DNA of 47,792 nt from Jimgerdemannia flammicorona. Its lineage: Eukaryota. Made by a program: the position numbers and the translations under genes. The stretch spans positions 1 through 47,792 of the forward strand of contig RBNJ01000043.1 of the NCBI GenBank assembly GCA_003990765.1, given 5' to 3'. This document shows positions 3,119-47,792 of this stretch, in pieces; the stretch's first letter is position 1, and every line of letters begins with the position of its first letter. Under the pieces are notes generated by a model, which made no database searches, was not told the origin of the DNA, and saw only the letters and a program-made list of their open reading frames with translations.

Positions 3119-3121
3119 ACT

Positions 3122-19361: not shown

Positions 19362-19372
19362 GCTGCTACCAA
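19362..19372 (-). promoter_or_regulatory. primer-binding site of B, initiator-Met-like
   Basis: TGGTAGCAGC 3 nt after the 5' LTR, complementary to a ...GCUACCA tRNA end. Confidence 0.75.
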
Positions 19373-19374
19373 GT

Positions 19375-24356: not shown

Positions 24357-25836
24357 TGTCATGTAGTAGTCGCTGAGTCCTTCAAATATGCCAGATTCTC
24401 TTCAAGGTATATCTCTTAGACTAACTCAAGTTGTTATAAGTAAGTTCTTATTGGAGTGCCTTTCCAAGGTCTTATAGTTCTCAAACTTCTTATCTTTAAC
24501 TGTCTTGTTATCTCTTAGATTGCTTGTAAGGAAGTGTGTGTATTGCACTGAGAAGACTGACTTTATTTCAGAGGAAATAAGAGAGGTATTTATACAAAAT
24601 ATAATTCAATAGTTGCTAAGATATAAAGCTAAATATAAATTCCAATAACTAAAACTACTAAGTTTCAGGGCTAGCATTATTTAGTGTCACATCAAAATAC
24701 TGGTGCTGGAACAATTTCGCATCACCTCAGAATGCTGGTACTGGCATTATCTAGTGTTACATGAGAATACTGGTGCTGGCATTATCTAGTGTAATAAAGA
24801 ACTTAGAGCAGAAAGTTCAGGATTATGGGGACTTCATCATCATCATTACTGAAGGAGATGAGATCTGCAAATTTGTCATTTTTGTGTGCTTTGATATTAT
24901 GTGGGATGATGTCATCACATTTGGCTGTGGCGGGGAAATCAGGGACAAGGTCTGGAGCTCTCCAGTCTATGAGGTTCTCTTCTACAAAATAAGGAACAAA
25001 TGTGGGGTCTTGGGGAGATCTAACCCAGATGCTTGGGCCTTGGAATACTGAGATTAATCCTTGCAGGAATTGATCTAGGTTGTCCTGAAGGATAGAGTGC
25101 CAGAAGTCTTCTACTTCTTCATTGTTGAGGGTGATAGTGGACTGGGCTTCTGTAGCCACCCTGACTTCTAGTGCATTGATATGGTGGGATGATAGGTCTC
25201 TGAAATCTGAGACTCTAATATACTCCAAGTTGGGGATTGACCATAGTGCATGTCTGAAGATCTGATGGATCTTCCTAGCTGTCCTTGTTTCACGTATATC
25301 TATGGGAGTGGTATCTTGTAGCTCTTGGGTGCTGGCCTGTGGGAACTCCTGACAGAGGAGGTTTTCTATTTCATACTCCTGTCACATTTGGAGGCATTTG
25401 GTAGCAATAGTGATCCTTGTTTCCATTTCGCGGCAGTAGAGGATAAAGTGATAAGGGTCTGCAGTATCTAGGTTGACACTAGGAGTCCTTCTTGAGCAGA
25501 TCCTCATGGCTCTTCTGATATCTTGGAACATCCTTTCCTTGACTGAGATACCTTGGTGATTCCTTGACCTTGAGATTTGGTAGACAGCAGGCATTTTGTT
25601 TGTGGTAAGTCTTTGAGCTATTTTGGGATTGGTGGTTCTTATTGGTTGCTGCTACTGTGGTTCCTTAATCCTTCTTTTATATTCTTCAGGATGCTTGTAC
25701 TATGGTCACAATGACTCACAGTTGGTCATCATTGCTCATCTCATATGCCATATGATCTTCTTGTGCTCCGATCTGGTAGCTTGTAAGGAAAGGCTGTCTC
25801 CTGTGCTAATGTCATCATTCTGGGGTCACTGTTACA
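24357..25836 (-). repeat. 3' LTR of C
   Basis: Direct repeat of 39646-41141. Confidence 0.95.
24803..25594 (-). pseudogene. LTR-encoded accessory ORF, C 3' LTR
   Basis: ORF-track pieces 25382-25594 and 24803-25228 are in one frame. Confidence 0.8.
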
Positions 25837-26338
25837 TCTGAGGAGGAAGAAGGCCCAGTGGGAGCCAAGGGAGCGAACCCAGAGCTAGTGTAAAGTGAAC
25901 AGAAGATATGTATATGGAAGAGCATATATAAGGGGGATGAACAAAGAATGTAACCGAAAATGCATCAGCCATTTATTGCCATATAAAAATGCAGTCCTTA
26001 TATACAAAATATGATGTCCCAAAAGGGAGAATGTGCCACAACTTGGGGCGAACCGAATTAGGAACCACATGACTGCCGGAGATAGGTGGAGATAAAGGGG
26101 GAGCCAATCCCAGTTGCAGGATAAAAATCACAAACAAATACAAACAAAACAAATCCAAATCGAGATTAAAAAACATCTGCAGACCCCAGAGGGGTGAGCG
26201 TGAGTGAGGGGTGAGGCTGAAACGGAGCGAGCTACAGTGAGCCTGAGCAAAGCAAGGGGCCGAAGACAGTGGAGGGGAGCAGAGTAAGGCCGAGACCCCA
26301 GAGCGAGCATGAGACCCTGGAGGGGGCAAGGATGTTTT

Positions 26339-28360
26339 TTAATCCTCTCCAGCAGAGCCGGAGGCACCAGAAGGTGACAAAAACGCAAAACAAGAGTGAT
26401 GGATTGAAGAAGAAACAGAAAGAAGATGCGAATGAGCAATCAGAGGGTGTCAGGAAAGAGATAAAAGTCCATGGCATGAAAGAGAAGAGCGCAGGATGGT
26501 ATCAGGGCGTTGAGCGACCCAGCGAGCATGATCAAATAGTACGACAAGAATTGGGAGTGAGAAAGAAGAGGGGGTATGGAGAGGGTAAGGGGGGAGAGAG
26601 GGAAGGGAGGGGGGATAAAGAGGAGAGAGGAGGGAAGAGTGAACAATAGACCATTCAACAGAAGCAAGCAGATTGCAAACAATAGAAATAGGGTAGGCAC
26701 AATGATGGACCACGAAGTTGCCAAGAACCCGAACAGCAGACACCCAATCAGAGTGATGGGAGCAGCATAATGTAAGATGACAAGCCTCACCCCGAACATA
26801 TTCAAGAAGAGTACAATGAGGATGATTGGACAAGAAGTCAGGGAACTGTTGGGAATATGGAAAATGAGAATAAACAACAGTTCAGAAAGGGGAAAGAGAA
26901 ATGGAAAGGTCCAAAAAGGGAATACTAGTCATACCACACACCCAGGTAATAGAATGGTGGAGAGGGTAGGCACCCAGAAACACACTAGGGATATCAATAC
27001 TAACAATAGTGAAGACAATGAAGTCATCAATGTAATGGCAAAAGAAGATATCCCCAGCCTGGAACACAATGGAAAGAGGTGAAGTAATATCATATAACAC
27101 ATGCAATTCATGGGTCAGGCCAATAAGGTTGGCAAGGGTGGGGGCACAATTCGTTTCCATGGTAATACCAGAAGTCTGGTGGAAGGAGCCAAGGGCTGAC
27201 TCAAAATAATTAGAGCCGCAGATGAGGAGCATAAGCTTAACAATAGAAGCCAATGAAACCAGGAAATCCAAAGGAAAGACAATGGAACTCAAGAAGTGAA
27301 GACAATTATCAATCTCATCAAAACGAATAGCAGTATAAAAGGAGGAAAAGTCACCGGAGGCCAAATGGGAAAAATGATGAACAGGCACAATGGTGGAGCA
27401 GAGAAGGGTGAGCTCCTGAGTATCATGAAGAATAGTATACTCAGGCCCAAGATGGTGTTGTAAGAGAGCTATCTAGGAGAGAAAGAAGTAGGATAACTAC
27501 TTCGAAATCTCAGTGATAGGAGAACTGTAAGCAGCTGTAATGGGATGCTAAGCCAAAATAGGCTTGTGAACTTTAGGAAGAGCATAGAAAACTGAAAGAG
27601 AAATATCTGGAGAGGATAAAGAGTCCTGGAAGAAGTTAAAAATGGGGTTTGCGAACAGAGAGTCCAAAAGCAACCTGGCATGAGCTAGAGAAACCCAAAG
27701 AAGAGTGAGAATCTCATCCAATCCAAGAGCACTAGGCTCGTAAGCCACAGCTTGAAGGAGGGCAGAAAGGCCATTAAGGTAGAGCAACTTAGGAATAAGT
27801 GCAAAACCCTGATTCTTATCAGTGACTGTGAGCAAATGCATAGGCAATTGCTTGACCGATTTAAGCGTAGTATGCATGGCACGGTCTGAAACCAAGCAAG
27901 AGCGAGCACATCCAGGAACGGACAGCGAGCAAGCCATATCGAGGAATACGTAGTGTGAAGAGACATTGGGAGGGGGGGCCCAATTGCTAGGAACAAAATA
28001 GTGAGAGGACATCTCACCATGATCTTGAAAGAAAATGGCAAGGTCAAGAGCACAATGAAAACATGTGAGACAAGCTGGATCAGTAAAGGAGAATTGTGAG
28101 AGAGTCACAGGAAAAACAAAGCAAGGACCCAAGGATAAGGCAAAGACTTGAAGGGGAGAAAGGGGGCAGTCAGCTGAAGAAAAAGGAGGAGATAGAAGAG
28201 TCCCAAGAGAAGAATAAACCCAAAAGTTTGGGACAAGCAACTGGGAAAGACAAAGGGGGGACAACATGAGGAACCACTCAGAGTGCACCAGAAGTGATGA
28301 TGGAATCCGAAAAGGGACGGAGATACTGGGAGAGAACCATGCCAGGGGGAAGTTTAAGAG
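26339..28360 (-). pseudogene. PLE reverse transcriptase, left arm
   Basis: FYALPKVHKP, DFSSFYTAI, CAPTLANL, YIDD, PFLDL, SNHPH. Confidence 0.9.
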
Positions 28361-29558
28361 CGGGAGGCCTTCCCCTTCCCTCTGACTTTTTTTGAAGGTG
28401 GCGAGCCTGATGAATGGGAGTACACCCCATCAGAGTACCAGACCTTACAGCCACAGGCTTTCATGTAGCCCTTACATTCAGGGGCACAGGTGGAGGAGGT
28501 GGAGGAGAAGCCAGCAGAGGAGGCCAAAGGCGAGTAAGCAGCCGAAGGGGCAGCAGTGTGAGGAACACCACCATGAGAATAGACAGACTTGGCCAGATGC
28601 CAGTAGGCATGGTGGAGGTGACCAGAGCAGATGGCACAAGGCCAGGCCCTGACAGGGTGAGAACCAAGTTGGCGGCCATGCTTGGGGGCAGGGGGAATGG
28701 AGGAGGAAGCCTTGGCGGGGGAGGGGGACCGGGAAGAGGCTGACGAAGCCTGATTGGGCTTAGCGGAGGTCTTGGCAGGGGTCTTGGAGGGGGTCTTGGT
28801 GGCAGCAGCAGTGAAGGATTGAACCTCAGTATGAGCAGCAGTACGAGCTTCAGCACGAATGGCCTCAGAGACCAAAACCTCAAGAGAGACAGGCAGAGGA
28901 GCAGTGGCAGCAGCGCAAGCAGTGGCGGCAGTACAAGACATCTCCTGCTCATGAAGGCAAGCAACAAAAGAGGTGCCAGTGAGGAGAAAATGATGCACAG
29001 CATTGATGTCGGTGGCGACAGAAGGAATGTCTTGGATAGTGAAGCCACAGAAGAGGGCAGCATCCGAAAGGTGAGAGGAGGTGAAGGCCACAAAGATGGC
29101 ACAGGCACGTTGGAAGGAGATGGAAGTGGTGGTGGCAGAAGCAGTGGTGGCATCAGCGGCGGAAAGCTTGGTGGCAGCAGTGGTAGCACAAACCTCTTCA
29201 GAGAGGGCTTGGCAGCAGGCTTCAGGGAGAACAGAGTAGTGGACAGCAGGCAGAGTGATAATGTTGACGTCATGGTGGAGACAAGCCTCCTTGGCGGAGA
29301 GGACAAGAACTGACTGGAACTGGGAGAGGAGCAGATGACCAGAGGGACAAAGGTCCAAGGGGAGGGAAAGGATGGCAGATGAGATGTAAGTCTTGAACGA
29401 GACAGTAGCAGGGGTGAAAGCAGGGAGAGGGGGAGGAGGAAGTTCCTCATCCATGAGCTCATCAATGAGGACAGAGGCCCCGAGGGCAGGCGGTATAGCA
29501 GAGAAGAAAGAAGGCCCAGTAGGAGCCAAGAGCTAGTGTCAAAGTGAACAGAAGACAT
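28354..29558 (-). pseudogene. PLE ORF1, Ala/Ser/Pro-rich with CxxCxxxxH motif, left arm
   Basis: 391-aa open frame; basic C-terminus; small deletion near 29530. Confidence 0.75.
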
Positions 29559-30239
29559 ATGGAAGAGTGTGTATAAGGGGAATGAATAAAGAATATAACC
29601 GAAAATGTATCAGCTGTTTATTGCCATGTAAAAACACAGTCCTTATATATAAAATACAACATCCCAAAAGGGAGGATGTGCCACAACTTGGGGCGAACCG
29701 AATTAGAAACCATATGACTGCCAGAGATAGATAGAGATAAAGGGGGAGCCAATCCCAGTTGCAGGATAAAAATCACAAATAAACACAAACAAAACAAATC
29801 TAAATCGAGATTAAAAAACATCCTTGCCCCCTCCAGGGTCTCGCGCTCACTCTGGGATCTCGGCCTTACTCCGCTCCCCTCCGCTGCCTTCGGCCCCTTG
29901 CTTTACTTGGGCTCACTGTGGCTCACTCTGTTTCGGCCTCACCCCTTGCTCATGCTCACTCCTCTGGGGTCTGCAGATGTTTTTTAATCTCGATTTAGAT
30001 TTGTTTTGTTTGTGTTTGTTTGTGATTTTTATCCTACAACTGGGATTGGCTCCCTCTTTATCTCCACCTATCTCCGGTGGTCATGTGGTTCCTAATTCGG
30101 TTCGCCCCGAGTTGTGGCACATCCTCCCTTTTGGGATGTCATATTTTATATATAAGGACCACGTTTTTACATGGCAATAAATGGCTGATACATTTTCGGT
30201 TATGTTCTTTATTCATCCCCCTTATATATACTCTTCCAC

Positions 30240-31458
30240 ATGTCTTCTATTCACTTTGACACTGGCTCTGAGTTCGCTCCCTTGGCTCCCACTGGGTCTT
30301 CTTCCTCCTCTGCTATACCACCTGCCCTCAGGGCCTCCATCCTCATCAATGAGCTCATGGATGAGGAACTTCCTCCTCCCCCTCCCCCTGCCTTCACCCC
30401 TGCCACTGTCTCATTTGAGACTTACGTCTCATCTGCCATCCTTTCCCTCCTCTTGGACCTTCATCCCTCTAGTCATCTGCTCCTCTCCCAGTTCCAGTCA
30501 GTTCTTGCCCTCTCTGCCAAGGAGGCTCGTCTCTGCCATGACATTGACATCATCGCTCTGCCTGCCATCCACTACTCCATTCTCCCTGAAGCCCACTGCC
30601 AAGCTCTCTCTGAAGAGGTTCATGCTGCCACTGCTGCCGCTAAGCTTGCCACCACTGATGCCACTGCTGCTTCTGCCACCACCGCTTCCGCCTTCTTCCA
30701 ACATGCCTGTGCCACCTTCATGGCCTTCACCTCCTCTTGCCTTTCAGATGCTGCCCCCTTCTGTGGCTTCACCATCCAAGACGTTCCTTCTGTTGCTGCT
30801 GACATTGATGCTGTGCATCGTTTTCTCCTCGCTAGCACCTCTTTTGTTGCTCGCCTTCATGAGCAGGAGACGTCATGTACTGCCACCACTGCTCATGCTG
30901 CCACCACTGCTCCTCTGCCTGCCTCCCTTGAGGTTTCAGTCTTCAAGACCATTTGTGCCGAAGCTCATGCTGCTGCTCATGCTGAGGTTCATTCCTTCGC
31001 CACTGCCGCCACCAAGACCCCCTCCAAGACCCCCGCCAAGACCCCCGCCAAGCCCAATCAGGCTTTGTTGGCCTCTTCCTGGTCCCCCTCTCCAGCCAAG
31101 GCTTCCTCCTCCATTCCCCCTGCCCCCAAGTGTGGCCGCCAACTTGGTTCTCGCCCTGTCGGGGCCTGGCCTTGCGCTGTCTGCTCCGGTCACCTCCACC
31201 GTGCCTACTGGCACCTGGCCAAGTCCATCTGTCCTCATGGTGGTGTTCCTTATGCTGCTGCCCCTTCAGCTGCTTGCTCACCTTCGGTATCCTCTGCCGA
31301 CTCCTCCTCCACCTCCTCTACCTATGCCCCTGAATATAAGGGCTGCATGAAAGCCTGTGGCCGTAAGGTCTGATACTCTGATGAGGTGTGCTCCTGTTTG
31401 TCGGGCTTACCACCTTCAAAAAAATATCAGAGGGAAGGGGAAGGCCTCCTACTCTTAA
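30240..31458 (+). pseudogene. PLE ORF1, right arm
   Basis: 377-aa open frame to a TGA that is TGG in the other arm; WPCAVCSGHLH. Confidence 0.78.
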
Positions 31459-31459
31459 A

Positions 31460-33472
31460 CTTCCCCCTGGCATAGTTCTCCCCTGGTGTCTCCGTCCCTT
31501 CTCAGATTCCGTCGTCACTTCTAGTGTACCCTGAGTGGTTCCTCATGTTGTCCCCCCTTTGCCTTTTCCAGTTGCTTATCCTGAACTTTTGGGTTTATTC
31601 TTCTCTTGGGACTCTTCTGTCTCCTCCTTTTTCTTTGACTGACTGCCCCCTTTCTCCCCTTTAAGTCTTTGCCTTATCCTTGGGTCCTTGCTTTGTTTTT
31701 CCTGTGACTCCCTCACAATTCTTCTTTACTGATCCAGCTCATTTCACATGTTTTTGTCATGCTCTTGACCTTGCCATTTTCTTTCAAGATCATAGTAAGA
31801 TGCCCTCTCACTATTTTGTTCCTAGCGATTGGGCCCCCCCTCCCAATGTCTCTTCACACTGCGTATTCCTCAACATGGCTTGCTCGCTGTCCGTTCCCGG
31901 ACATGCTCACTCTTGCTTGGTTTCAGACTGTGCTGTGTGTACCATGCTTAAATTAGTCAAGCAATTGCCTATGTATTTACTCACAGTCACTGATAAGAAT
32001 CAGGGTTTTACACTTATTCCTAAGTTGCTCTACCTTGATGGCCTTTCTGCCCTCCTTCGAGCCATGGCTTATGAGCCTAGTGCTCTTAGATTGGATGAGA
32101 TTCTTACTCTTCTTTGGGTTTCTCTGGCTCATGCCAGGTTGCTTTCAGACTCTCCATTTGCAAACTCCATTTTTAACTTCTTCCAGGACTCTTTGTCCTC
32201 TCCAGATATTTCTCTTCCGGTTTTCTATGCTCTTCCTAAAGTTCACAAGCCTATTTTGGCTTGGTGTCCCATTATGGCTGCTTATAGTTCTCCTACCACC
32301 AAGATTTCGAAGTGGTTATCCCGCTTCTTTCTCTCCTGGATGGCTCTCTTACAACACTGTCTTGGGCCTGAGTATACTATTCTTCATGATACTCAGGAGC
32401 TCGCCCTTCTCTGCTCCACCATTGTACCTGTTCATTGTTTTTCCCATTTGGCCTCTGGTGACTTTTCCTCCTTTTATACTGCTATTCATTTTAATGAGAT
32501 TGATGATTGTCTTCGCTTCTTGGGTTCTATTGTCTTTCCTTTGGATTCTCTGGTTTCATTGGCTTCTATTGTTAAGCTTATGCTCCTCGTCTGCAGCTCC
32601 AATTATTTTGAGTTGGCCCTTGGCTCCTTCCACCAGACTTCTGGTATTGCCATGGGAATGAATTGTGCCCCCACCCTTGCCAACCTTATTGGTCTGGTCC
32701 ATGAATTGCATGTGTTACGTGATATTACTTCACCTCTTTCTATTGCATTTCAGGCTGGAGATATCTTCTTTCACCATTACATTGATGACTTCATTGTCTT
32801 CGCTGTTGTTGGTATTGATATCTCTAGTGTGTTTCTGAGCATCTACTCTCCCTACCATTCTATTACCTGGGTGTGTGGTACAACTAGTATTCCCTTTTTG
32901 GACCTTTCCATTTCTCTTCCCCCTTTCTGAACTGTTGTTTATTCTCGTTTTCCATGTTCCCAACAGTTCTCTGACTTCTTGTCCAATCATCCTCATCACA
33001 CTCTTCTTGAATGTATTCAGGGTGAGGCTTGTTATCTTACATTATGCTGCTCCCATCGCTCTGATTGGGTGTCTGCTGTTCAGGTTCTTGGCAACTTCAT
33101 GGTCTATCATCATGCCTACCCTATTTCTATTGTTTGCAATCTGCTTGCTTCTGTTGAATGGTCTATTGTTTGCTCTTCCCTCCTCTCTCCTCTTTATCCC
33201 CCTCCCTTCCCTCTCTCCCCCCTTACCCTCTCCGTACCCCCTCTTCTTTCCCACCCCTGATTCTTGTCATACCATTTAATTGTGCTCGCTGGGTCACTCA
33301 ATGCTCTGATACCATCCTGTGCTCTTCTCTTTCATGCCATGGACTTTCATCTCTTTCCCGATGCCCTCTGATTACTCGTTCATGTCTTCCTTCTGTTTCT
33401 TCTTCAATCCATCACTCTCATTTTGCGTTTTCATCACCTTCTGGTGTCTCTGGCTCTGCCGGAGAGGATTAA
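31460..33472 (+). pseudogene. PLE reverse transcriptase with thumb domain and no GIY-YIG
   Basis: LSLGPCF, TDKNQG, FYALPKVHKP..PI...SPT..SKWL, GIAMG.NCAPTLANL, YIDD, SNHPHH...GEA; ends shortly after the thumb. Confidence 0.92.
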
Positions 33473-34289
33473 AAAACATCCTTGCCCCCTCCGGGGTCTC
33501 ATACTCACTCTGGGGTCTCGGCCTTACTCTGCTCCCCTTTGCTGCCTTCGGCCCCTCACTTCGCTTAGGCTCGCTATGGCTCACTCCATTTCGGCCTCAC
33601 CCCTCACTCACGCTCACCCCTCTGGGGTCTGCGGATGTTTTTTAATCTTGATTTGGATTTGTTTTGTTTGTGTTTGTTTGTGATTTTTATCCTGCAACTG
33701 GGATTGGCTCCCCCTTTATCTCCACATATCTCCGGTGGTCATGTGGTTCCTAATTCGGTTCGTCCTGAGTTGTGGTGCATCCTCCCTTTTGGGACATCAT
33801 ATTTTGTATATAAGGACCACGTTTTTACATGGCAATAAATGGCTAATGCATTTTCAGTTACATTCTTTGTTTGTCCCCCTTATACATGCTCTTCCACATG
33901 TCTTCCATTCGCTTTGACACTGGCTCTGGGTTCGCTCTCTTGGCTCCCGCTGGGCCTTCTTCCTCCCCTCCTGAATAAGGATCTTCCTGAGCATCCTTAT
34001 TCATTGATCCAGTTCTGAAAAATTTGCTGATCCCATAACCTCTGGCAAGGGGTCGAAAACTGGTGTTTATGGGCTGATGTCTTCCTTTTGTATTTTGGCA
34101 TGATAGTGAAGGGTCACTCCCTTCATATAGAGCAAGGGCCTGATTCTGATCTTGACCAATCAGTTGATGGTTCAAACTCCTCTGACTACAAAAGTCTCAT
34201 GGATGAGTAGTTGCCAGTGCCATATCCCTTAGAGAATAGTCCAGACAGATAGCCTGCTGGTCACGGGACATGCTGTTATGATTTGTGAC

Positions 34290-37200
34290 TAGAACCTTGG
34301 GCAGTCATCATGTTTTGCTTCTCTTGTATAGGTTCATGGTACTTCTTGAGTCTGTTCCTATGTACTGTGGTAGGCAGTATGGTCTCTGAGATTTTTCTAA
34401 GCCAGAAGGTAGTTCCCTTGATATTTTGCATGTAGAAGAGTCCTTCCCATTTGGGCTCTAGTTTTCGTGACCATGAGGCTTCTACTATATTTCGATACAG
34501 TAGAACCTTTTCTCCAATTCAGATGGGTTCTAGGGCCTTGTGATTCTTTTCCACATTCTTCCTTGTCAGTGCTTGTAACTTGGTGATGTAATCTTCAGCC
34601 TTCTTCCTGATTTGGTGTAGTCTCCATATTTCTGCATCAACTTATCTCTAAGTTAGGTCTAGATTTGTAGCTAAGGTTCCATTAGAATCTTCTTCTCTGA
34701 AGAGCAGCTCTCTTGGGGTAAAATATGTGCTCTGTGACCATATGTCTCATAGAACAGAGAGGGCAGTTGGGAGATAGTTATCCCAATTCTCATATGTCTC
34801 TGAGATCTTTGCTAGGATGTTCTTGAGGGTCTTGTTGGTTCTCTCTGTCTGTCCATTTCCTTGAGAGTAGTATGTGGTGGTCTTGATGTGTTGGATCTTG
34901 TATTTCTGGTACATTATCTTGTGGAATCCATTGACAAATTCTGTGCCGTGGTCTGTTGTGATTTGCTTTGGTGTCTTATAGTAGCAGATGATTTCTCAGT
35001 GTAGGAAATCAGCTATAGAGAGGACATTAGCTTCTTGTAATGCTCCTGTCTCTATCCATTTGGTGAAGAGGTCTACAATAACTATAATATAGCAGTTTCC
35101 TGATAGTATTACTGATAGTGGTCCAATGATATCCATTGCAATGTGGTGGAAGGGGATAGACTCAATTCTTGATGATCCGGGTGCCTGGTCTTGCTGATCT
35201 TGTTTCTGTTTTTGGCACTTGTCACACCCTTTGACAAATTGGCACAGGTCTTCTTCCATCTTGGGCCACTACATGGTTCTTCTTGCCTTGTCATATGTAT
35301 TGGTTCCTCCTAAGTGTCCTTGCTCATATACTTCCTTCATTACTTGATACTTCTTGTATTCAGGTATTACTAGCTTTCTTCCTTTTCTGAGTGTAGTGTT
35401 GTCTAATTCAAACTGTTTCCAAGTCCAGTTGATGATGGTGATTGTCCAGGGTTCAAGGTGGTTGGGCATCTTCTACTGCCTAAGGTAGCTGATTAATCCA
35501 TAGTATAGCTCCTTATTCATGTTGAATAGTCTTGATGGGGATGTTTTGGGATATCCTTGAGAGTGCATCGGTATTGGTGTTGGTCTTTCCTAGGCGGTGC
35601 TTGACAGTATAGTCATATTCTTGCAGCCTGTAGATCTATCTGGTATATATTCCTTTGGGGTTCAGAGTGTGGAATAGCCAGGCAAGAGTGGAATGGTCTG
35701 TTTGAATGGTGAAGTGTTTTCCAGCTAGGTAGTAGTGGAACTTGTCTACTGCCCAAACTACTGCTAAGCATTCAAGCTTGCATGACTCGTAGTTTTGTTC
35801 TGCTCTGCGGGTACCTCGGCTTGTGTAGGAGATGACATATTCATGTTCATCTTTCTTCTGAGCTAGGACTGCTCCAAGTCCTATAGCACTTGCATCTGTC
35901 TGCAGGATGATTTCTAGGCTCCAGTCTGGTCTTCTGAGGATGGGTGCTTGGGTCAACCTGGTCTTGAGTTCATTGAAGGTTTCTTAGCACTCCTTGGTCC
36001 ATTTGAATTTGGTCTCCTTCTTCAGTAGCTCATAGATAGGTGCTGTAATGTTGGAGTATCCTTTGATGAATCTTCTGTAGTAGCTGGCCAGTCCAAGGAA
36101 GGCATGGACTTCTGTAGTTGTTCTGGGTCTTGGGTAGGCTGCAACAGCCTTGATCTTCATGGGGTCTGTGTGGATTCCAGTCTGGTTGATGAGGTGTCCA
36201 AGGTAGGTGATTTCTTGAGCTGCAAACTTGCATTTCTTGGGCTTGATGTAGAGGCCATGCTCCTTGAGCCTCTTGAGGGCTAGCTGTATATGATTGATAT
36301 GTTCCCATGCAGTATTGCTGAAGATGATCACATCATCAATATAGACAAAGAGCCATTTTCCAATCTCATTGCTGAAGACTTTATTCATCATTTGCTGGAA
36401 ACTTGCTGGGGCATTGCATATTCCAAATAGTATTCGCAGATAGATATAGGTGGCATCAGGTATAATGAAGGCTGATTTCTCACTGGCATCTTGAGTGAGA
36501 CTGATCTGATGGAAGCCTGAGAACAGATCCAAGGTGGTGTAGTATTTGGCTTCACTTTCAAGAGTGGTAAGGATTTCTTGAATATTCAGCAAGGGCTGCC
36601 TATCCTTCTTGGTGATGGTATTGAGTTTCCTATAGTCAATGTAGAGTCTTGGTACAAACTCTCCAGGCTTGCTTCCTTTCTTCAGGGCAAGGACAATGGG
36701 TGAGGCCCAGGGGCTGATAGCTTGCTTAATGATTTCAGCTTCTTCTATTTTCTTGAGTTCAGCTCGCAGCCACTCTCTGTAGGCAGGTGGTATGGGTCTG
36801 GCTTTCTAGTAGATAGGCTTGGTATCACCAGTGTCAACTTCGTGGTGGTACTTGGGTTCTTGATTGTGGATATCCCTAAAGTCTGTAACAAGTACTCCTT
36901 CGTTCTGGTACAGGATCTTGAGAAGTTGTTCCTCCAGGGGAAAGTTTTCTCCAATGGTATATGTGTGCTTGTTCTGGTCCTTGTCTTTCTTGTGCTCAAG
37001 TTCAGTAATCTTGGTGGCGACATAGGCTCCTCTTCCAGTAGATCCAAAGCCTTGTTCTCCTCTCTTGGTCTTGATAAGTTCAGTGGCTTCTATGATCTTG
37101 GGTTTCTTGATTTCATGGATCAGTATCTGGCCAATCCTGTCATGCTTCTTGACTTTGAAGGGAGTGGTGTGGTTGTGATTTCTGACTATGAGAAAAATCT

Positions 37201-39525
37201 CACCAGTGTAATCAGGGTCAATTACTCCTCCTTCAACTGAGATTTCGCTTTTGGCCAGACTGCTCCTGGTCTTGATAATTCCGGCATGGTTTTCTGGCAG
37301 CTTGACTCCAATTCCAGTGCCAAGTAGAGTAGTGGTCTGTGGTTCGAGGGTAGCATCTTGGATGCTGGCAAGGTCCATTCCTATGGCTCCTTCAGTCTTG
37401 TATTCTGGGATCTTGGCTTCAGAGTGAAACTTCTTGACCTTGAGGGTGATATCTCCTCATCGTCACTGTCAGCTTGAAGCTCTGGGGGCTGTTCATCTTC
37501 TTCAGCTTTCCTTTTTGCTTCGGCAGCTTTTTGCTCATATTTCCATTGGCAGATTTTCCTGACTTCGCTGATACAGGACCAGCAGTCATTTAGGTGTTCA
37601 GAGCAGTATATTCTAGTACCATGGGGGCATCTTCCTTAAGGGGCATACCTATTGATGATCTTGTTATACCACTGCTCATCTGTGAGCTTGGGTGTCTTGT
37701 TCTTGTTCTTGTTCACTGAGTGCATGAAGACCTCTGTGTCTTCTTCATCTCCTTCCTTCATGTCTGGCAGGACTCCTTTGTGGACATTGATAGAAACTCA
37801 TACCTTTCTTCCTCTGTAGTTGATCTGCATCTTTTGGGCATTGAGGTCAATGATGGCCTTGGCCTTGTGAAGCCATTAGTTGCCAATGAAAATATCATAG
37901 TTGGTGGCGCTTGTAACAATTATGTCTACTGGGATGGTAGCTCTTCCTATCTTGATGGGGACTTCTTGGATTTTGCCAAGGAGGGTAGCTTGTATACTGT
38001 CTGCTGTGACATAGACCATCTTGGTGGACTCTTTAATGTCCCAACCTAGGCAGTCAATTGCCTTCTTGCTCATAAGGCATCCTCTGGCACCAGTATCAAT
38101 GATGGCATCAAAAATACAGTCTTCAATCTGGCAGGGGATATAGGCTGATGTCTTGTGCTGGTCTTCAGATTCTTCACCTGAGTTCTCAGATTCTTCTTGT
38201 GCATTGTGAGCTTCTACAATCTTGTATTCTTGATTCTTGATAGTAGTTGCAAGTTCTACTCTCAACTGCTGTCTGAAGGCAGGGACTTCAGCTAGCTGTC
38301 CAAAAGTGGCATTGACCTTCTGTTCCTTGAGGTCCTTGTAGATGTCATACTGGTGGATCTTGGTCTTGCACAGCTTCTGTTCCTTCTTGCTCTCACTTTC
38401 TCCTGAGACTGGAGTAGTGCCTTCAATAATTTGGCAGGCAGCTTTGTCTAACTCCATGTCTTGATCAATCTCCTCGTATTGGGTCTTGCTTTGAATAGTG
38501 ACAGCTGGAGTCTTCTTTGGTCTTCCAACTGGCTTGCTGTTACTCTTCTTATCATAGGGCTTAGACCAGGTTCTGGTACCTTCAGTAGTAGGGTAGAATT
38601 CGAGCTCCTTGTAGTATTCTTCATCATCAGTGTCTCTGATCTCCTCAATGACTACTGCATTAGTTTGTTCTCTGGTTCTGCTAGCATTGCTTGGTTGGGC
38701 TTTGTGTCTTGTTTCGGTCATGCAACTCTTTGTATAGTGGCCTTCTTCTCCACATCTGAAGCATGTAATATTGCGTTCTTCTGTAGCAGCTGCAAATCTC
38801 TACACTAGTCTCCTGTTGGTGCTTCAGACTTCTCTAACAACATCACCAAGGTGTGCAGTCATCTTGGCGAACTGCTTGGCAAGTTCTTCCACTGGGTCAG
38901 CTTTGGCTGTCTTGGGGGTAGGTGAGATTGGTTGTCTGTTTACAACTGTGGCAGGTAAGATACTAGTTGGCTTTGATGGCTCCATCTTTATGCTAGTTAT
39001 TTTCTCCATTGAGTGTTTGGCAGGGTATCTGACAGTCCAATATCTCTGTGCAAAGACCACTTTCTGATCAAGGGTCAGTGCAGCTGGGGTAGACCAGATT
39101 GCTAGGGAAATTTCAGGGTGAACTTCTTTGAGAAAGGTTAAATCTGCTATTTGTTCTTTGAGGGCATCATCATAGCCAGCCAAGACAATCTGGTGACAGA
39201 TTCAGGTATAGAATGAGTTGGGATCTTCACTAAGTCTCTGGTAGATAGTATTGAGTTGCTCCTTGAGAGCTTGCTTGATCTCTTCGATATAATATGTTGT
39301 TTTGAGGAAGACCTTCATATTGGCAAGTTTGGCTGCACCAGTATCAGCAATGGTGGCTACATTAAACTTATCTCTGGCAGGTCCTCTGAGGCTGACTGGT
39401 AGAAGGGCCAATTGAGCATCCACACCAAGGGCTCATATGGTGGCGAATTGTTCAAAGTCTTCAATGAAGGTCAGGATTGACTCTTTAGTAATATATCCAT
39501 AGAATGTGGTGGGGTGTATTTCCAT
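34290..39525 (-). pseudogene. gag-pol of C (gag, CFRCGEEGHYTKSC knuckle, protease, Cys/His module, dUTPase, RT, RNase H, integrase)
   Basis: IIDTGA, LDLFSGFHQI, YIDD, TDAS, GHLG..CDKC, MDIIGPL, VDLFTKW. Confidence 0.96.
37035..37435 (-). pseudogene. dUTPase domain between protease and RT in C
   Basis: GMDL, RSSLA, GGVIDPDYTGE, RIGQ, RGEQGFGSTG all intact. Confidence 0.96.
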
Positions 39526-39625
39526 CTTATCTTGAATTCTTGTAGGGGTGACTCTTGTAGTCAGGGTAGTTGTTGTGGGGGTTGTTCATTTTTCAGCTTG
39601 AAAGTGAGGGATTCATCTTGAATCA

Positions 39626-39642
39626 CCAGCCAATGGACACCA
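39626..39642 (-). promoter_or_regulatory. primer-binding site of C
   Basis: tggtgtccattggctgg 3 nt after the 5' LTR. Confidence 0.7.
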
Positions 39643-39645
39643 AGT

Positions 39646-41141
39646 TGTCATGTAGTAGTTGCTGAGTCCTTCAAATATGCCAGATTCTCTTCAAGGTATA
39701 TCTCTTAGACTAACTCAAGTTGTTATAAGCAAGTTCTTATTGGAGTGCCTTCCCAAGGTCTTATAGTCCTCAATCTTCTTATCTTTAACTGTCTTGTTAT
39801 CTCTTAGATTGCTTGCAAGGAAGTGTGTATATTGCACTGAGAAGACTGACTTTATTTCAGAGGAAATAAGAGAGGTATTTATACAAAATATAATTCAATG
39901 GTTGCTAAGATATAAAGCTAAATATAAATTTCAATAACTAAAACTACTAAGTTCCAGGACTGGCATTATTTAGTATCACATCAAAATACCAGTGCTGGAA
40001 TAATTTCATATCACCTCAGAATGCCAGTGCTGGCATTATCCAGTGTTATATGAGAATACCGGTGCTGGCATTATTTAGTGTAACAAAGAACTTAGAGCAG
40101 AAAGTTCAGAATTATGGAGACTTCATCATTATCATCACTGAAGAAGATGAGATCCGTGAATTCATCATTTTCGCATACTTCAATATTATGCAGGATGACA
40201 TCATTGATGACATTATCACATTCGACTATAGCAGGGAAATCGGGGACAAGGTCTGGAGCTCTCCAGTCTATGAGGTTCTCTTCCATAAAATAAGGAACAA
40301 ATGTGGGGTTTTGGGGAGATCTAACCTGGATACTTGAGCCTTGGAATACTGAGATCAATCCTTGCAGGAATTGATCTAGGTTATTCTGAAGGATAGGGTG
40401 CCAGAAGTCTTTTACTTCTTCGCTGTTGAGGGTGATAGTGGACTGGGCTTCTGTAGCCACCCTGGCTTCTAGTGCATTGATATGGTAGGATGATAGGTCT
40501 CTGAAATCTGAGACTCTAACATACTCCAAGTTGGGGATCAACTATGATGCATATCTGAAGATCTGATAGATCTTCCTAGCTGTCCTTGTTTCATATATAT
40601 CCATGGGAGTGGCATCTTGTAGCTCTTGGGTGCTGGCCTGTGGGAACTCCCAGCAGAGGAGGTTTCCTATTTTGTACTCCTGCCACATTTGGAGGCATTT
40701 GGTAGCAATGGTGATCCTTGTTTCCATTTTGTGGCAGTAGAGGATAAAGTGATAAGGGTCTGCAGTACCCAGGTTGATGCTAGGAGTCCTTCTTGAGTGG
40801 GTCCTCATGGCTCTTCTGATGTCTTGGAACATCCTTTCCTCGACCGAGATACCTTGGTGATTTCTTGATCTTGAGGTTTGGTGGGCAGCAGGCATTTTAT
40901 TTGTGGTAAGTCTTTGAGCTATTTTGGGATTGGTGGTTCTTGTTGGTTGCTGCTACTGCAGTTCCTTGATTCTTCTTTTATATTCTTCAGGATGCTCATG
41001 CTGTGGTCACAATGACTCACAGTTGGTCATCATTGCTCATCTTGTACATATACCATATGATCTTCTTGTACTCCGATCTGGTAGCTTATAAGGAAAGGCT
41101 GTCTCCTGTGCTGATGTCATCATTCTGGGGTCACTGTTACA
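39646..41141 (-). repeat. 5' LTR of C (~1.5 kb)
   Basis: TG...CA termini; TATA at 39876-39883 and AATAAA at 39851-39856 on minus. Confidence 0.95.
40092..40895 (-). pseudogene. LTR-encoded accessory ORF, best-preserved copy (267 codons, one internal stop)
   Basis: Adjacent in-frame ORFs 40542-40895 and 40092-40541; the stop corresponds to TGG in the 3' LTR copy. Confidence 0.85.
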
Positions 41142-42072
41142 CCAGTAAGTCATAAAAAGATAATAGTATTCTACTAAGCTACCAGCTATAGAGAAATTCT
41201 TTAATAGTATTTAGAGTAAATTTTATACTTTAGCGCTTATTAATACTATATCAAGCTTTAAAAATACTTTAATATTAAAACAACTACCAGAATATAATTA
41301 AAGAAAGTAGATCACTAAATACTAGATATCATACATATATATATTTAAATTACTATTACTAAATAAGTTCACAAACTATTTAAAGATAATAAGCCAGCTT
41401 TAGCTTACTTCTGAAGAATAGTTATAGAAAACTTTAAGTAGATAAAAAGATACTATTGGAAGAATATAATTAAGCAGATTATATAATATAAGAACATATA
41501 GCTAATAGAAGCTTAGAAGTTTAAATAAGATAATTTAAAGATAAAATTACTTATTCAGAAGAAAGTATAATATATAATCCAAATTAGAAATAATTAGAAG
41601 ATAGATATTTGATCAAAGTATCTAAATCTAATTTCTGATATTATAGTTGTATAATTTTTATATATAATTATATAAAATATATATCTATATAAAACTTATA
41701 ATTATATAAATTATACAAATATATAGATCTTATAACTATATGAAATAACTTATAGGAAAAGAAGTCTTAACTTAGCTATCATATAGTATAAACTTATATA
41801 AATAACTTCAGTATTTAGAGTAAAAAAATCTTAAATAAAAATAGTTCAAAAGTAAAAAAATAAGTGAACTAATAAGCCTATAGGTAAATATACTTTAACA
41901 GACCTTTCTCCTATACAATTCACATTATACCAACTTCAAGCAATGGTTTTTAATATAACTTAAAGAAAAGGTACTATAAAAATATCATCAAGTAAGAGTT
42001 CTGATAAGTATGCTAGGTTGGGTAGACCTGGGGCATTTAGCTGGTAGAATGTAGAGAGAGGTTATAGACTAG

Positions 42073-44040
42073 GAATGGGAGCCTTTGGAGGATTGAAGGG
42101 TGGAGAGGGATCTGAAGAAGAATCAGTATAAGATAGAAGTAAGAGAAGGCCTGGCTTCTCTAGCTTTGTGGACAAGGTGAAGGGAAGTAGATGGCTAGTT
42201 AGAGCTAGGACTGATGTTGCTGAGGGGAAGGGTAAGGCAAGCATCAGTAGGGAGAGCAGTACTCAGGTGAGAGATATGAGCATAGGGGCTGGAGATGCTG
42301 TGGCTGAGGGTGGGACTACTGATAAGAGTGTGATGGGAAATCAGAAAAAAAAAAGAGATGTAATGGCTGATGATAAGATGAGGCAGAGGTTCTCAATACA
42401 GAAGGGGGACTTGGCAGATAGTATAATGGGGCTAATGGTGGTACCATTGCTCAAGAAGTCAATCTTGGAGTTTGTGGCTATCTTGTACTTCTGGGGCTTA
42501 GCAGTGACAGCAAGGATGGTCCTGGGGCTTATCTCAAAGCAGGTGGCTGGAGCTACTTTGGTAAAGTTCCTGAAGAGTCTGGAGGGGGTGGAGATGGGCT
42601 TTAAGAAGGCAGGCTCACTGGAAGAGGCTCTGAAGACTAGAGTGGTGGTTGGGGAAGTAGTGGTCCTATAGTATACTGTCTTAGGTGGAACCCCAGAGTA
42701 GTTCAGCTACTGGTGAAGGGGGTGCCTATAATAATAGCAGTTGAGATGAAGAGAAGGGTTGAGGAGGTGATGGCAGAGTATAGTAATGTAGTTGATATTA
42801 GTTTCCAGATATGGAAGGGGACTACTATTAGGACTAGAGATGTTGATATCAGAATTCAGCTAGTAGGGAAGGAGGCCACTGGGAAGACAAGTGACTAGCC
42901 ATCAGTGATGCTATAGGAGGCTTTTATTTGTCAGATATCAAGGGTGAAAGGGAGTAAGAAGGAGGAGGAGGATCTGTTGGAGGCTCTGGAGGAGATGAGT
43001 GAAGTTGTTGAGCAGAGGATGAAGGCCTAAAAGAGATATATAGAGTTGACATATTTGGAGATTGTGGAATAAAAGTATATCTATACTGATAGGAGGCAGT
43101 GGAAAAAGGCTCAGGGGCATAAGAGACAAAGAGAGCTGTTGGTGAGTATAGAAGGTAGAGTGAAGAAGAATAATAGTAGTATTGAGGAGTCTAGAGGTGT
43201 GGAGGCAAATGTCTGGGCCAGTAAGAGAGGAGAAGTAGTAGAGAGGGTTCTGGAGGAGGCTGGAAAGATATCATGGGTGGACCTATTTGAGGATGATACA
43301 TTTGAAGTCTGAGAACCTGTTATGGAAGATACTCCCCCTCTAATTAGGTGGGGTCCTGCTGCAAAGAGCAGAGCAGCAGAGGATATGCTGATGTATGGTA
43401 CCAAGCAGGTCCACTTTGGAGTTCCTGATATGGCAAAAGGGAGACAGGTGGTGGCAGTTAGTGAGGATGAGCTGGTAGATATCCTGGAAGAGAGGTGGAA
43501 TAAGACTGTGAGTATTAGAGCAGATACCATAATGCTGGATGCAGGAAGGCCAGCAACTCTGGGGAGAAAAGAGATAGGTAATCTATTGTGGATATATCAG
43601 ATGATGAACAACTTCACAGCTGAAGAATTGGGGGAAGTGGACCTGAGAGTGATGAGTGAGGAGTACTGGATACAGATCCTGTGGGGGAATAGTATAGTAG
43701 AGATACTGAAGGTAGAGGTACTTGCAATTTTTCTGGAGAAGGAGGGGTATGAGATCAATAAGGAGAGGGAGGCTGAGCTAGTAGTTGCTGCCAGTGAGTG
43801 GGCTGTCTACTGTTGGGTAGAGCAGCATGGTTTGCAACTTTAGCAGGAGGCCTGCTTAGAGTATCATGAGAAATTTGAGGAAAAAGAGAATAGCAAGATG
43901 GCAGAACTTCTGGAGATATTAGAAGTAAAGAAAGTTGGAGAGGAGGGGCTGGCAGTGGAGCATAACTTGGACTTGGTACAGGAGAGATAGGATGTGGATT
44001 TGTAGAGGATGAGCAGGACCTTACTTCTAAATACTATTCC
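42073..44040 (+). pseudogene. LINE ORF1 relic
   Basis: Series of + strand ORF fragments upstream of the APE domain. Confidence 0.6.
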
Positions 44041-44042
44041 CT

Positions 44043-47000
44043 ATAAATAGTATAACTAACATTTTCTCACTGAATGTAAATGGATTACAGAGATCTGGGT
44101 GATATAAGAACATTTTTACTTAGCTTAAAAGATTGGAGGTAGATCTCTTTCTGCTGCAGAATATATATTATGAAAATAATGATAACTGTAAGGAATGGAC
44201 TGGGGAATGAGGAGGGGCTACAGTATAGAAGGATAAGGTGGCAATTTTGGTATAAAGTGGTAAAGGTAACTTAGGGAGAATCAGAAGTTGGGGAGACCAT
44301 TTGGTATGGGGAGAATGGAATCAACCTGGGTAGGAGCTAGTGAAAGTTGGCTCTTGCTACTGCCCTGTAGTTAGGGGTGAGAGAATCATATAGATTAAGG
44401 GGCTTTTGGAGAAGGGTGTACTCTTGGAGGATGGTATCAATATATTGGGAGGTGACTTTAATATAGTGCAGAATCTGGAATTGGATAAAACTGATAGAGG
44501 GAGGAGTATAGGTGAGAGGAGTGGTGGGCTGGATGCTTGGGAGGAGGTCAAGAACCTTAACTTCTTAGGAAATATAGGCTGTATGGGGTGGGGTAAAAAG
44601 AGAATCTACACACACTGGGTAAATGGTCTTAGGACAAGGATAGATTGAATTCTAATGGCCAAATGCTGGGGTGTGGATATCTGAAGAACTCTAGAGGTAG
44701 AGTAGTGCCCATAGTCTGATCACTAGGGCTTGTTGGGGCAGGGGCAGTTTGGGGAGAGTGGAGATAGATCCAGATATTGGCACCTTAACTCCTCTCTACT
44801 GGCTGAAAAGGTTTTGTAGAACCCATGGATGGAGGACATCCAAGTGAAGATTGCCAGCTGGACATATGAGGGTTTGCCAGTGGGTGTCTGATGGATAAAG
44901 TTAAAAGAGACTGTACAGGTTTACTGGAGGGGAGGGCTGATAGAGAGGCAGGGAAGCAGAGAAGAAAAAGGGTGAGGTATGCTTCTAATCAGTTGGTTAG
45001 ACTGCAGATGGAATGGGCAGATTTGTTAAATTCTGGCAAGGTTGATGATTGGAGGTTGGAGCATGCAAGATTGGAGGTGATGGAGCTGCAACAAGTATTG
45101 AGAGAGAAGGAGGAGATATATATGAAAGAAATGGCAGCCAGGCTGAGGTGGTAGGGACTTAAGGAGAGGGAGAGGCCTACTAGGTACTTGTCACAACTCC
45201 TCTAGGCCAGGAGGGTATGGCATTGATAGAATGGAGTTCTGGATGAAGAGGGGGAAATGATGCATAGTATACAACAGATCTTAGGGGTACTGAAGGAGAG
45301 GTAGAGGTGTCTATAGAGTGAGGAGGAAGGGGGTGAGGGTGAGGAGGCAATTGGAGAAATGCTAGAGGATTGGAAACTACCACAAATAGAGGGTCTTGGT
45401 GACTTGATCCTATCAGTTCAAAAGGAGAAGATCCAAAGAGTTCTTGCAGCCACAAAGCTTGGGACAGCACTAGGAGAGGATGGGTTACCCTGGGACTTTT
45501 GGAAGAAGATGGTGAAGATTCTTGGAGTTTTAGGAGAGATGGCAGCCCTCTGTGACCATGTTCTTCTAAATGGTGAGTGGGTTGGAGAGTAGGACTTGGG
45601 GTTAGTGGCCTTGGTATACAAAGATAAGAGAAGGAGAGAGGACTGGAAGAACTGGAGACTGATCATACTTCTGAATATAGACAGGAAGATAGTGACTAAG
45701 GTGATTGTTGCAAGGCTACAGAAGGTTGCCCAATAGGTACTGAGTGAGAAGCAGCAGGGCTTTGTTGGCAGCAGACTTATTAGAGATGGGACAGCCTGAG
45801 TTCATAGCATTATTGAAGGAGCACAGGCTTGTGGATTAGATGGAAGACTGGTCTTTTTGGACCAGAAGAAGACCTATGACTGCATCCAGCAGGTGTGGCT
45901 AGGCAAGATGCTGGATAGAATTGGTATTTCCTCACAATTTCAAGCTTCTATATTGAATCTATTAGAGGGCAGTAGGGCAGTATTGATGTGTAATAGATAC
46001 TAAGGTCTGGTATTCCTCTTGGGAAGAGGAGTCCCTCAGGGTAATCCACTGTCTTCTATCCTTTATGCTCTTTCATTAGAACCTTTGATAGATAGGATAT
46101 GACAGAAGGTGGCAGGGCTCTCTATATATGGTGTAATATGGAAGATAGGGGTCTTTGCAGATGATATAGTAGTTGGACTTAGCTTGGTAGCAGATGTTGA
46201 GATACTTAAGGAGATAGTTGAATGGTATGGGGCATATTCTGGAGTAAAACTCAACTGGCATAAGTGTGAGACAATAGTGCTGAGGAATAAGCTTGTAAGA
46301 GGAGATATCATTGGAACAATTATCTCTACAGAAGAGGTAGTGAGATATTTGGGCATCTTCCTTTCTATATATGGTTCTGTCTTACTATGGTTGTAGTGAG
46401 AAAGGAGGGTGGCTATTTGGGGGGAGACTCTTTGAGGTTGAGGAGGTCACCATATCTCTCTAGCAGACTGGGTTTCAATCTTGGATGTCTACTGGTTCCC
46501 TAAGCTGTGGTATGTTGCATATTATCTAGACTTTCTAGCTTGGGTAATGAAGAGACTGATAAAACTAGCTAGAGACTGGATTTGGGCAAAGAGGCAGTCT
46601 CAGATAAGTTGGGACACTCTGGCAATACTAGTGGTTTGGAGAGAGCTTGGCCTAGTGGACTTTCCTAAGAGACTATACTGTCTGTAAGTATGGTGATTGA
46701 AGAGGGCTATTGATCTACAGAGATGGGGTTGGGTACTACTGAACTAGAAGGTATGGGAGATGAGGTTCTCTCCATAAGGGTCCTTGGAAGATCTGCTCTC
46801 TCTGGTGGATCTAGATGGAAGCTGATGGCTATAATATAAGGGCTTTTGGGGGGGGGGTGATAAATAGAGCACACTGAATTGACCTGCACTGGTGAAGCAA
46901 TGAGAGAGAGACGCTATGGGGTCCAGCTATGTGGTGATGGAACAGACTGATTCTGGAGGGTATTTTACTTACTGAGTTTGATATTAGTAATGGCATAGAG

Positions 47001-47610
47001 TGTCAGCAGGGTCTTGGCCAGGATCTTTGACCAAGTAGTTGGCAGGTAGTGAGAATTGGTAAGGAGTAGGACTGGGCAGAAGTCTGATCATAGAGTGCTG
47101 AGGTGTGGAGGTGGTTTCCTCCCAAGTTCTAAGTAGTATGGTGACAAATACTGTAGAGGAATATTATGTTGAATTTTCATACTAGGCATCTGGTGGATGG
47201 TGGCCAATTAGATTGTAAGGAGTGTTATAATGTAGAGTAAGTTGGGGGATTTGTATAGTCACCTGAATATTGGCTGGGAGAGTGTGAGATTCTGGGGGAC
47301 TTTTAGATAGTAGTAGAGGACCAGCTGAGGGTGAAGAAGAGACCAGATAGAGAGAGAGGTCACTGGGAGGATTTGAGATCTTGGTTAGTGGATAGTGTAG
47401 ATAATGGTTGACTTACTATAGGGTGGGTTTTAGTGATATGAGTAGGGCTAACTGGACATTGACTCTTTATTTTCAAGAAAGGATAATAAATAGGTATACA
47501 AGAGAAGTTGTTAAGGTAGGAGGAGTTGATGGGAGATTTGCTGACTGAGTGGTGAGTTGGTTAGGGTCCCCAGGGTGGGCAATATCACTATCTGGTAAAA
47601 AGAATCTATA
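44043..47610 (+). pseudogene. LINE ORF2 (APE endonuclease + RT)
   Basis: SLNVNGL, GGDFN, RID, SDH; GEDGLP, NWR.I.LLN.D.K, QQGF, LDQ.K.YD, GVPQG.PLS, FADD, YLGI. Confidence 0.92.
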
Positions 47611-47792
47611 AATAGAGTATTGGGCAAGTAGAGATGGTAAATAATAAAGTTGTCTTTCATCACATAGGAGTGGGAAAGAGGAGTCCCTCTAGGGAGATTA
47701 AATAGGGGTGAGAACAGTGTATTATATAGAGGATAGATAGGTGTGTTAATAAAGGAAGGAGTCCAAGTGACTATAAAAAAAAAAAAAAAAAA

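Follow-up and report, generated by a model that had tools for sequence, protein, structure and literature searches.

A probable accessory protein gene within the long terminal repeats of dUTPase-bearing gypsy elements from Jimgerdemannia flammicorona

The window analysed here is a stretch of 47,792 nucleotides (nt), positions 1–47,792 of contig RBNJ01000043.1 of Jimgerdemannia flammicorona (assembly GCA_003990765.1; positions refer to the forward strand), which self-blastn comparison and Pfam scans resolved into a nest of retroelements. Our subject is an open reading frame (ORF) in mutated state at 40092–40895 on the minus strand, situated in one long terminal repeat (LTR), the 5′ one, of a Ty3/gypsy (Metaviridae) element, hereafter element C. 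This LTR (C5) covers 1,497 bp at 39645–41141 (minus strand) with the ends TGTAAC...ATGACA, and self-blastn paired it at 91% identity over 1,497 bp with the 3′ LTR (C3) at 24356–25836 (minus strand), the boundaries of both being taken from self-blastn and a four-copy alignment. The frame comprises 267 codons plus a TAA stop (ATG at 40893–40895, TAA at 40092–40094) and corresponds to two stop-to-stop frames, 40092–40541 and 40542–40952, joined across the single TAG at 40542–40544 that splits them and that is matched by tryptophan in intact relatives. It occupies LTR offsets 247–1050, thus starting 246 nt into the LTR and ending ~450 nt before the LTR end. Downstream of the frame, GTATAAATACC at 39874–39884 (minus strand, LTR offset 1258) is the presumed genomic core promoter by motif position and, together with the presumed poly(A) signal AATAAA at 39851–39856 (minus strand, LTR offset 1286), marks the U3/R border. 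The block holding both motifs (39851–39884) is nearly invariant in the four LTR copies of elements A and C and is the best-conserved block of the LTR; GTATAAATACC lies 208 nt past the ORF stop in C and 190 nt past it in element B, and is identical in both families. Because the ORF ends upstream of this LTR TATA box, it is assigned by anatomy to U3, as a preliminary description of this DNA had stated, an assignment that assumes the downstream TATA box to be the genomic promoter.

A corresponding frame is found in all six LTRs of the three gypsy elements, in each case on the same strand as gag-pol. In C3, it spans 24803–25594 (minus strand, 263 codons), with one TGA at 25382–25384 opposite a tryptophan of the relatives and a 12-nt in-frame deletion relative to C5. 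Element A (plus strand; LTRs at ~1643–3119 and 8787–10263 and internal region at 3120–8783, by self-comparison) belongs to the same family as C, with 83% identity between the elements. Its 5′ LTR copy (A5) at 1810–2619 (plus strand) keeps the frame over 269 codons with eight stops, and its 3′ LTR copy (A3) at 9040–9844 (plus strand) has many stops and a 2-bp deletion. Element B (minus strand) has LTRs positioned by self-blastn and alignment at 11023–13074 (3′ LTR; ~2,050 bp, with the ends TGTAAG...CTTACA) and 19375–21424 (5′ LTR), which are 91% identical by self-blastn. Its frame, at LTR offsets 293–1387, is represented by 364 codons at 11688–12782 (minus strand, B3), with five internal stops that are R/W/R/Q/Q in intact relatives, and by 20041–21133 (minus strand, B5), with ten stops in the first 282 codons followed by a 2-bp deletion. 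The preliminary description had reported a sense ORF in each LTR, including one of 364 codons in B3; the frames do lie there in element sense, but none of the six is open in the window, five of them (C5, C3, A5, B3 and the first part of B5) holding between one and ten stops each. It had also noted that the LTRs of A/C and of B share no DNA similarity, and here the best blastn match between them was 12 nt long with E=0.38.

Conservation and coding character of the A/C frame are evident from its relatives, which comprise 11 metagenome proteins at 22–83% identity and one locus with an intact ORF. A word-indexed search returned five proteins at 57–80% identity, including P0005, which is open over its full length of 271 aa, and an exhaustive profile search of 1.84 billion protein representatives returned five at E≤1e-3; the distant relatives from the profile search, P0011, P0012 and P0013, have 39, 33 and 22% identity to the window copy, respectively. 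Two further cluster members were found for the family, and all A/C relatives reside on metagenome contigs of 0.8–4.8 kb, annotated at most as “hypothetical protein”. The locus, L001, is a 1,535-nt metagenome contig that was retrieved by a metagenome scan with P0012 as query and contains an intact ORF of 291 codons; a metagenome scan with the family alignment as query found no locus, and viral contigs scanned for either family gave no match. When L001 was compared with the C LTR by tblastx, a single frame pair aligned (40.5% over 195 aa, E=5e-50), which indicates frame-specific conservation, and the stretches matching in blastn were at most 44 nt long. In the A/C protein alignment, the MP... 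start, the core and the ...LNFLL end are all conserved, and the acidic tail varies through in-frame insertions and deletions (indels). Between A and C, the indels inside the ORF measure 3, 3, 3 and 12 nt, versus 58, 2, 1 and others in the non-coding LTR. Fixed A-versus-C transversions, which repeat-induced point mutation (RIP) does not produce, affect 17 of 787 ORF sites versus 42 of 498 flanking LTR sites (odds ratio 0.24, Fisher P=3e-7). The A/C frame is thus very probably a real protein gene, judging from these comparisons, and the selected U3 gene that had been proposed finds support in intact relatives, in-frame indels and a stronger constraint than in the flanking LTR DNA. An origin from gag or pol was considered for the ORF and rejected: when all six frames of the window were scanned with the profile, no match in an internal region was better than E=0.47. 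Of note, L001 contains a ~30-nt direct repeat (GTCAGGCGGAAC...CAGAACA) at 170–200 and 1479–1510, ~1,310 nt apart and on either side of the ORF; a U3 motif present twice or an artefact of assembly may account for this repeat.

All window copies have decayed by RIP-type CpA>TpA transitions. Within the ORF, the differences between paired LTRs are 79 transitions and no transversions in C and 144 transitions and four transversions in A, and CpA is the commonest context of the LTR-pair differences (71/115 in C, 102/179 in B and 117/206 in A). For 24 of the 25 stops in the five frames examined, intact relatives have W, Q or R at the same position; the remaining stop is a Y codon altered by a transversion. 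Where both B copies have a stop in common, P0014 and P0009, which are intact, have R or Q, so that these stops are parallel hits rather than an ancestral break. Such a transition pattern is the signature of RIP, known from filamentous ascomycetes, and the decay points to a RIP-competent fungal host. The transition load of A is far above that of its relative C, so that RIP-like decay reached different depths within one locus. In one soil-metagenome run, 2,316 contigs matched 39000–41300 at a likeness of at least 80%; where they differ from the window, the changes are mostly A>G and T>C, and the mutated state therefore sits in the window copy. A low-depth contig of another run has 39833–40852, nearly the whole ORF, replaced by 36 other letters.

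The B frame has two open relatives that span it jointly, namely P0014 (128 aa; B residues 1–128, 80% identity) and P0009 (247 aa; B residues 115–364, 60% identity). B and C are distant lineages, with reverse transcriptase (RT) domains that share 36.8% identity over 155 aa. As previously described, one of them bears a chromodomain (B) and the other (C) has none detected by Pfam. The peptide blocks that had been quoted as shared by the A/C and B proteins are present in a single collinear hhalign alignment of 123 columns near both N-termini. The 11-sequence A/C alignment matched three B rows with P=0.068, and with P=0.004 (probability 8.4%) after the intact P0014 was added to B. A column-shuffle null of 220 permutations (mean 14.2, sd 2.7, maximum 25.2) never reached the real score of 27.8, the reversed alignment scored 13.2, and the real hmmsearch score was attained in 8 of 2,000 residue shuffles, although these shuffle nulls are lenient towards helical proteins. 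When all six frames of the window were scanned with the A/C profile, the B ORF, read in its own frame, was the strongest non-self match (E=0.32). Both structure models are helical over the first 140–150 residues, at predicted local distance difference test (pLDDT) values of only 48 and 33. As this was a single planned comparison, a P of ~0.005 is meaningful, yet far from proof. With RTs only 37% identical, a fast-evolving accessory gene would be expected near the detection limit, and in plant Retrosat2, according to the accessible part of PMC3485330, ORF0 is ~10% similar where ORF1 exceeds 60%. We lean towards regarding the A/C and B proteins as very distant homologues. The homology that had been proposed is no more than suggested, being borderline at profile level and short of the usual thresholds (BLASTP E=0.078 and 0.13, hhalign probability 8%). 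Vertical descent with fast divergence fits the weak likeness as well as exchange does, and thus nothing favours the exchange of the gene between lineages over descent.

The sequence around the frame suggests how the gene could be expressed. A candidate promoter, TATAAAAG, is found at 40975–40982 (minus strand), ~80 nt upstream of the ATG, and recurs in C5, C3, A5 and A3 and, at a similar distance from its ATG, in L001. It is followed by a conserved leader, AAAGACTTACCACAAAYAAA, which with the ATG covers 40893–40915 (minus strand). This leader belongs to a 41-nt stretch surrounding the ATG in which L001 and C5 share 85% identity, though the proteins are only ~40% identical. Element B has a TATA-like TATATATAC 70–78 nt upstream of its ATG, and the leader is CA-rich in both C and B. 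The U3 length before the ATG is 246 nt in C and 292 nt in B, and GTATAAATACC is followed by AATAAA and an R-U5 of ~200 nt in C and ~350 nt in B. In the interval from the ORF stop to the genomic TATA box, Tandem Repeats Finder reported a 35-bp tandem repeat (39960–40033; 2.1 copies, 82%) that may be enhancer-like, and B has tandem repeats of 31–32 bp at the start of U3. The simplest reading, which we consider plausible but hold tentatively, is that the U3 gene would form a transcription unit contained in the LTR, with transcription driven by TATAAAAG ~80 nt before the ATG, with the conserved leader, and ending at the AATAAA past the genomic TATA box. From such a unit, the 5′, 3′ and solo LTRs could all express the gene. 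Of four sequencing runs whose contigs were aligned here, two of guessed RNA type cover the LTR and not the adjacent internal region, with contigs leaving both LTR ends into unlike sequence; such a pattern is compatible with solo LTRs or with DNA and is uninformative about expression.

The A/C and B proteins have net charges of −15 to −36. In the A/C family, the first 60 residues are basic and Arg-rich, and the tail is acidic with hydrophobic DLIxF-type motifs, which are repeated in P0012 and L001; the B protein ends in an acidic-aromatic tail. The AlphaFold2 model of the A/C protein shows helices over residues 18–149 at a pLDDT of 48.4, and that of B has a pLDDT of 33.0. From these predictions, we infer a mostly helical A/C protein with a disordered, acidic-hydrophobic tail. 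On the basis of composition, we propose, as a possible but doubtful role, that the protein is a trans-acting nuclear factor that regulates expression of the element itself or serves as an adaptor for it, working like an activator or against silencing. Among the candidate matches inspected, ATG5_HBR on one C copy (Pfam, 19.6 bits versus a cut-off of 21.3) was taken as noise, and two 12.7-bit PDB sequence matches of B to SKA1 (E=0.42) were taken as chance. A search of the ESM Atlas with P0005 provided no lead (best feature score 0.83, all TM scores below 0.5, own model pLDDT 0.35).

Taken together, 40092–40895 is probably the mutated copy of a real accessory protein gene in the LTR U3 of a dUTPase-bearing gypsy family, with B carrying a gene in the same place and with the same layout. 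To the broken state of all six frames, the assumption behind the U3 placement and the BLASTP and hhalign probability values just given, further points must be added that weigh against this interpretation. The transversion-only dN/dS between A and C, related to a check that the preliminary description had proposed with C>T and G>A changes masked, is ~0.68 and not significantly below 1 (six synonymous and 21 non-synonymous changes, P=0.27), so that short-range constraint at the protein level is weak or unproven. The family is rare, with five of 1.84 billion representatives and no match with a genome accession, and since its relatives in the database are predicted ORFs, ascertainment is biased towards intact copies. 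A target-site duplication was not found for element C, the flanks of which differ and are heavily mutated, and among the sequencing runs searched none recorded as RNA contains the LTR stretch, the runs with the LTR being DNA or of guessed type. Pfam found no family above cut-off in either C copy, the PDB sequence search gave no match to the A/C protein at E≤1, and Foldseek gave no PDB match at E≤0.001 with the poor A/C model. The AlphaFold2 models of A/C and B (pLDDT 48 and 33) are too poor for the structural comparison that had been proposed for A versus B. Given the poor models and the lack of a fold or family match, function is read from composition alone, which limits the significance of the gene. 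The dN/dS value would also suit a frame that is not a gene at all, be it a chance open frame of the A-rich sense strand or a conserved cis-acting DNA or RNA element devoid of stops, and sense strands of retroelements are indeed compositionally skewed. This explanation is nonetheless very improbable, as the L001 frame is open over 291 codons at ~40% amino-acid identity while its DNA cannot be aligned to C beyond two short stretches, and tblastx of the two yields one frame pair only. Further open relatives extend down to 22% identity to the window copy, the start and end are conserved with indels in frame, and the stops are explained by RIP-type changes of W, Q and R codons. A far more serious competitor, to which we give somewhat less than an even chance, concerns the kinship of the two genes: each lineage may have acquired or evolved a different acidic U3 protein gene, the blocks being a chance likeness of helical, compositionally similar proteins. 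The BLASTP values accord with this, as do hhalign probabilities of just 0.8–8%, an identity of 20% over the 123 aligned columns with the C-terminal two thirds unaligned, the failure of the A/C profile to return any B-like protein from the 1.84 billion, and the disregard of the shuffle nulls for helical structure that unrelated proteins share. Homology is favoured by the P of ~0.005 from two nulls for one planned comparison, the rise in score once an intact B relative was added, and an alignment that is collinear and begins near both N-termini. Gene position and LTR layout are also the same in both families, and with RTs just 37% identical, weak likeness of a fast accessory gene is what would be expected, with a parallel in Retrosat2 ORF0 (PMC3485330, accessible part).

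Two further alternatives accept the gene and differ from the LTR-contained unit in how it would be expressed. The ORF may lie not in U3 but in a very long R or leader region, with TATAAAAG as the genomic promoter and the gene as a 5′-terminal “ORF0” of the genomic RNA that happens to fall inside the repeat. This would accommodate the TATA-like box and conserved leader ~80 nt before the ATG in C, A and L001, and the similar box in B, and an ORF located upstream of gag has a precedent in plant gypsy elements (Retrosat2 ORF0; accessible part of PMC3485330). We nevertheless deem it quite unlikely, as GTATAAATACC represents a second strong TATA box, identical in both families and with AATAAA within 20–130 nt in the most conserved LTR block, an arrangement that is the usual one of a U3/R junction. 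An R region of ~1.1 kb would be required, which to our knowledge is far beyond known R lengths. Alternatively, the gene might lack a promoter of its own, with expression confined to the 3′ LTR portion of genomic transcripts via a spliced subgenomic mRNA. The U3-located genes known from retroviruses, such as sag of mouse mammary tumour virus (MMTV) and nef of human immunodeficiency virus, are mostly expressed in this manner, and every full-length transcript includes the 3′ U3. By this analogy the route is conceivable but unlikely, given the conserved TATAAAAG and leader directly before the ATG, where, as judged without a dedicated splice-site analysis, no acceptor ending in AG is conserved across C, A and L001.

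Retrotransposon LTRs are treated as non-coding promoter and terminator modules and are masked by transposable-element annotation. A conserved protein gene wholly inside U3 would carry the layout of a few vertebrate retroviruses over to fungal Metaviridae. By position, the U3 gene appears most like MMTV sag, which is likewise a complete sense ORF inside U3 and hence duplicated in both LTRs. There, the host is a vertebrate betaretrovirus, here it is a fungal Metaviridae element; Sag is a type II membrane glycoprotein, whereas the protein here is acidic, helical and cytosolic- or nuclear-looking. Less close are lentiviral nef and foamy-virus bel/bet, which only overlap U3 and start upstream of the LTR, unlike the present ORF, which is wholly in the LTR. 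The foamy-virus genes are 3′-end accessory genes reaching into U3, where an extra promoter drives an acidic transactivator, and our model would likewise have a second promoter and an acidic protein. No sequence or fold relation to Sag, Nef or Bet emerged from the Pfam (cut-off), PDB sequence (E≤1) and Foldseek (E≤0.001, poor model) searches described above. In fungi, brtn of the Botrytis cinerea Boty/BcGypsy1 element is reportedly antisense, to go by the title of Zhao et al. 2011. It is likewise an extra gene in a fungal gypsy element (accessible part of PMC8365987), in contrast to which the gene here is in sense orientation in A, B and C and inside the LTR. Plant Retrosat2/RIRE3/RIRE8 ORF0 and Ogre ORF1 resemble it as lineage-restricted orphan ORFs of long-LTR elements that evolve much faster than pol, but plant ORF0 is upstream of gag-pol, not within the LTR, whereas ours lies inside the LTR and not in the internal region (PMC3485330, accessible part). 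The accessible text of a review of plant additional ORFs contains none of the phrases “in/inside/within the LTR” (PMC7264820). In the literature searched, no LTR-borne protein gene was found described for Metaviridae or LTR retrotransposons, in line with the novelty claimed previously; the coverage was the literature and did not extend to Repbase and genome annotation. An “add. ORF” given without location in a figure legend may bear on this novelty (accessible part of PMC2864245), and the phrase “LTR-encoded protein” was rejected as a lead because it denotes element-encoded proteins, not an LTR-borne gene.

If the interpretation is true, solo LTRs may have coding capacity, and long-LTR, dUTPase-bearing elements would possess a candidate trans-acting factor for self-regulation or defence resistance. 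In the fullest version, which is speculative and in our view rather improbable, each LTR would be a self-contained gene, comprising a dedicated promoter within the initial 250 nt of U3, an ORF of 267–364 codons and the LTR poly(A) signal, and solo LTRs would express it as well. The encoded protein would act in trans in the nucleus, either boosting the element or opposing silencing or RIP. Both dUTPase lineages, with and without a chromodomain, would have inherited this ancient gene by descent, and it would constitute the first “sag-like” class of U3 genes in Metaviridae.

The assignment of the host elements to Ty3/gypsy is based on direct LTRs with TG...CA ends, on an adjoining primer-binding site (PBS) and polypurine tract (PPT), and on domain order. 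A PBS-like ACTTGGTGTCC (TGGT...) directly follows the C 5′ LTR, and the PPT AAGAAGGGGAGAG directly precedes the B 3′ LTR. By Pfam, the internal region of C at 33967–39644 (minus strand) reads gag(CCHC)–protease (PR)–dUTPase–RT–RNaseH–integrase, and that of B at 13075–19374 (minus strand) gag–dUTPase–PR–RT–RNaseH–integrase–SH3–chromodomain, so that both have a CCHC gag followed by the PR–RT–RNaseH–integrase order. Like the dUTPase-containing fungal Metaviridae of Phanerochaete, Postia and Tuber (Tmt1), the host elements here have a dUTPase; its position differs between them, B having it ahead of PR and C having it in the interval from PR to RT. Variable placement of dUTPase has been described for basidiomycete elements, namely those of Postia (accessible part of PMC2864245).

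The elements are separated by AT-rich stretches with a GC content of 0.22–0.25 at 1–1700, 10264–11022 and 41142–42000. An 8.1-kb insert at 25838–33966 sits precisely at the junction of C's polypurine tract with its 3′ LTR and consists of two inverted arms of ~4 kb (25842–29822 and 29976–33966), which are 89% identical and show extreme strand skew. One of its frames has a weak RVT_1 match (E=6e-4, below cut-off), with LPKVHK and YIDD motifs in the translation, and the insert may be a head-to-head pair of an unusual retroelement, conceivably, as no more than a guess, a Penelope-like one. Finally, a non-LTR (LINE-type) retrotransposon with an Exo_endo_phos endonuclease and RVT_1 occupies 41142–47792 on the plus strand, with a strong positive GC skew and a poly(A) run at the end of the window.

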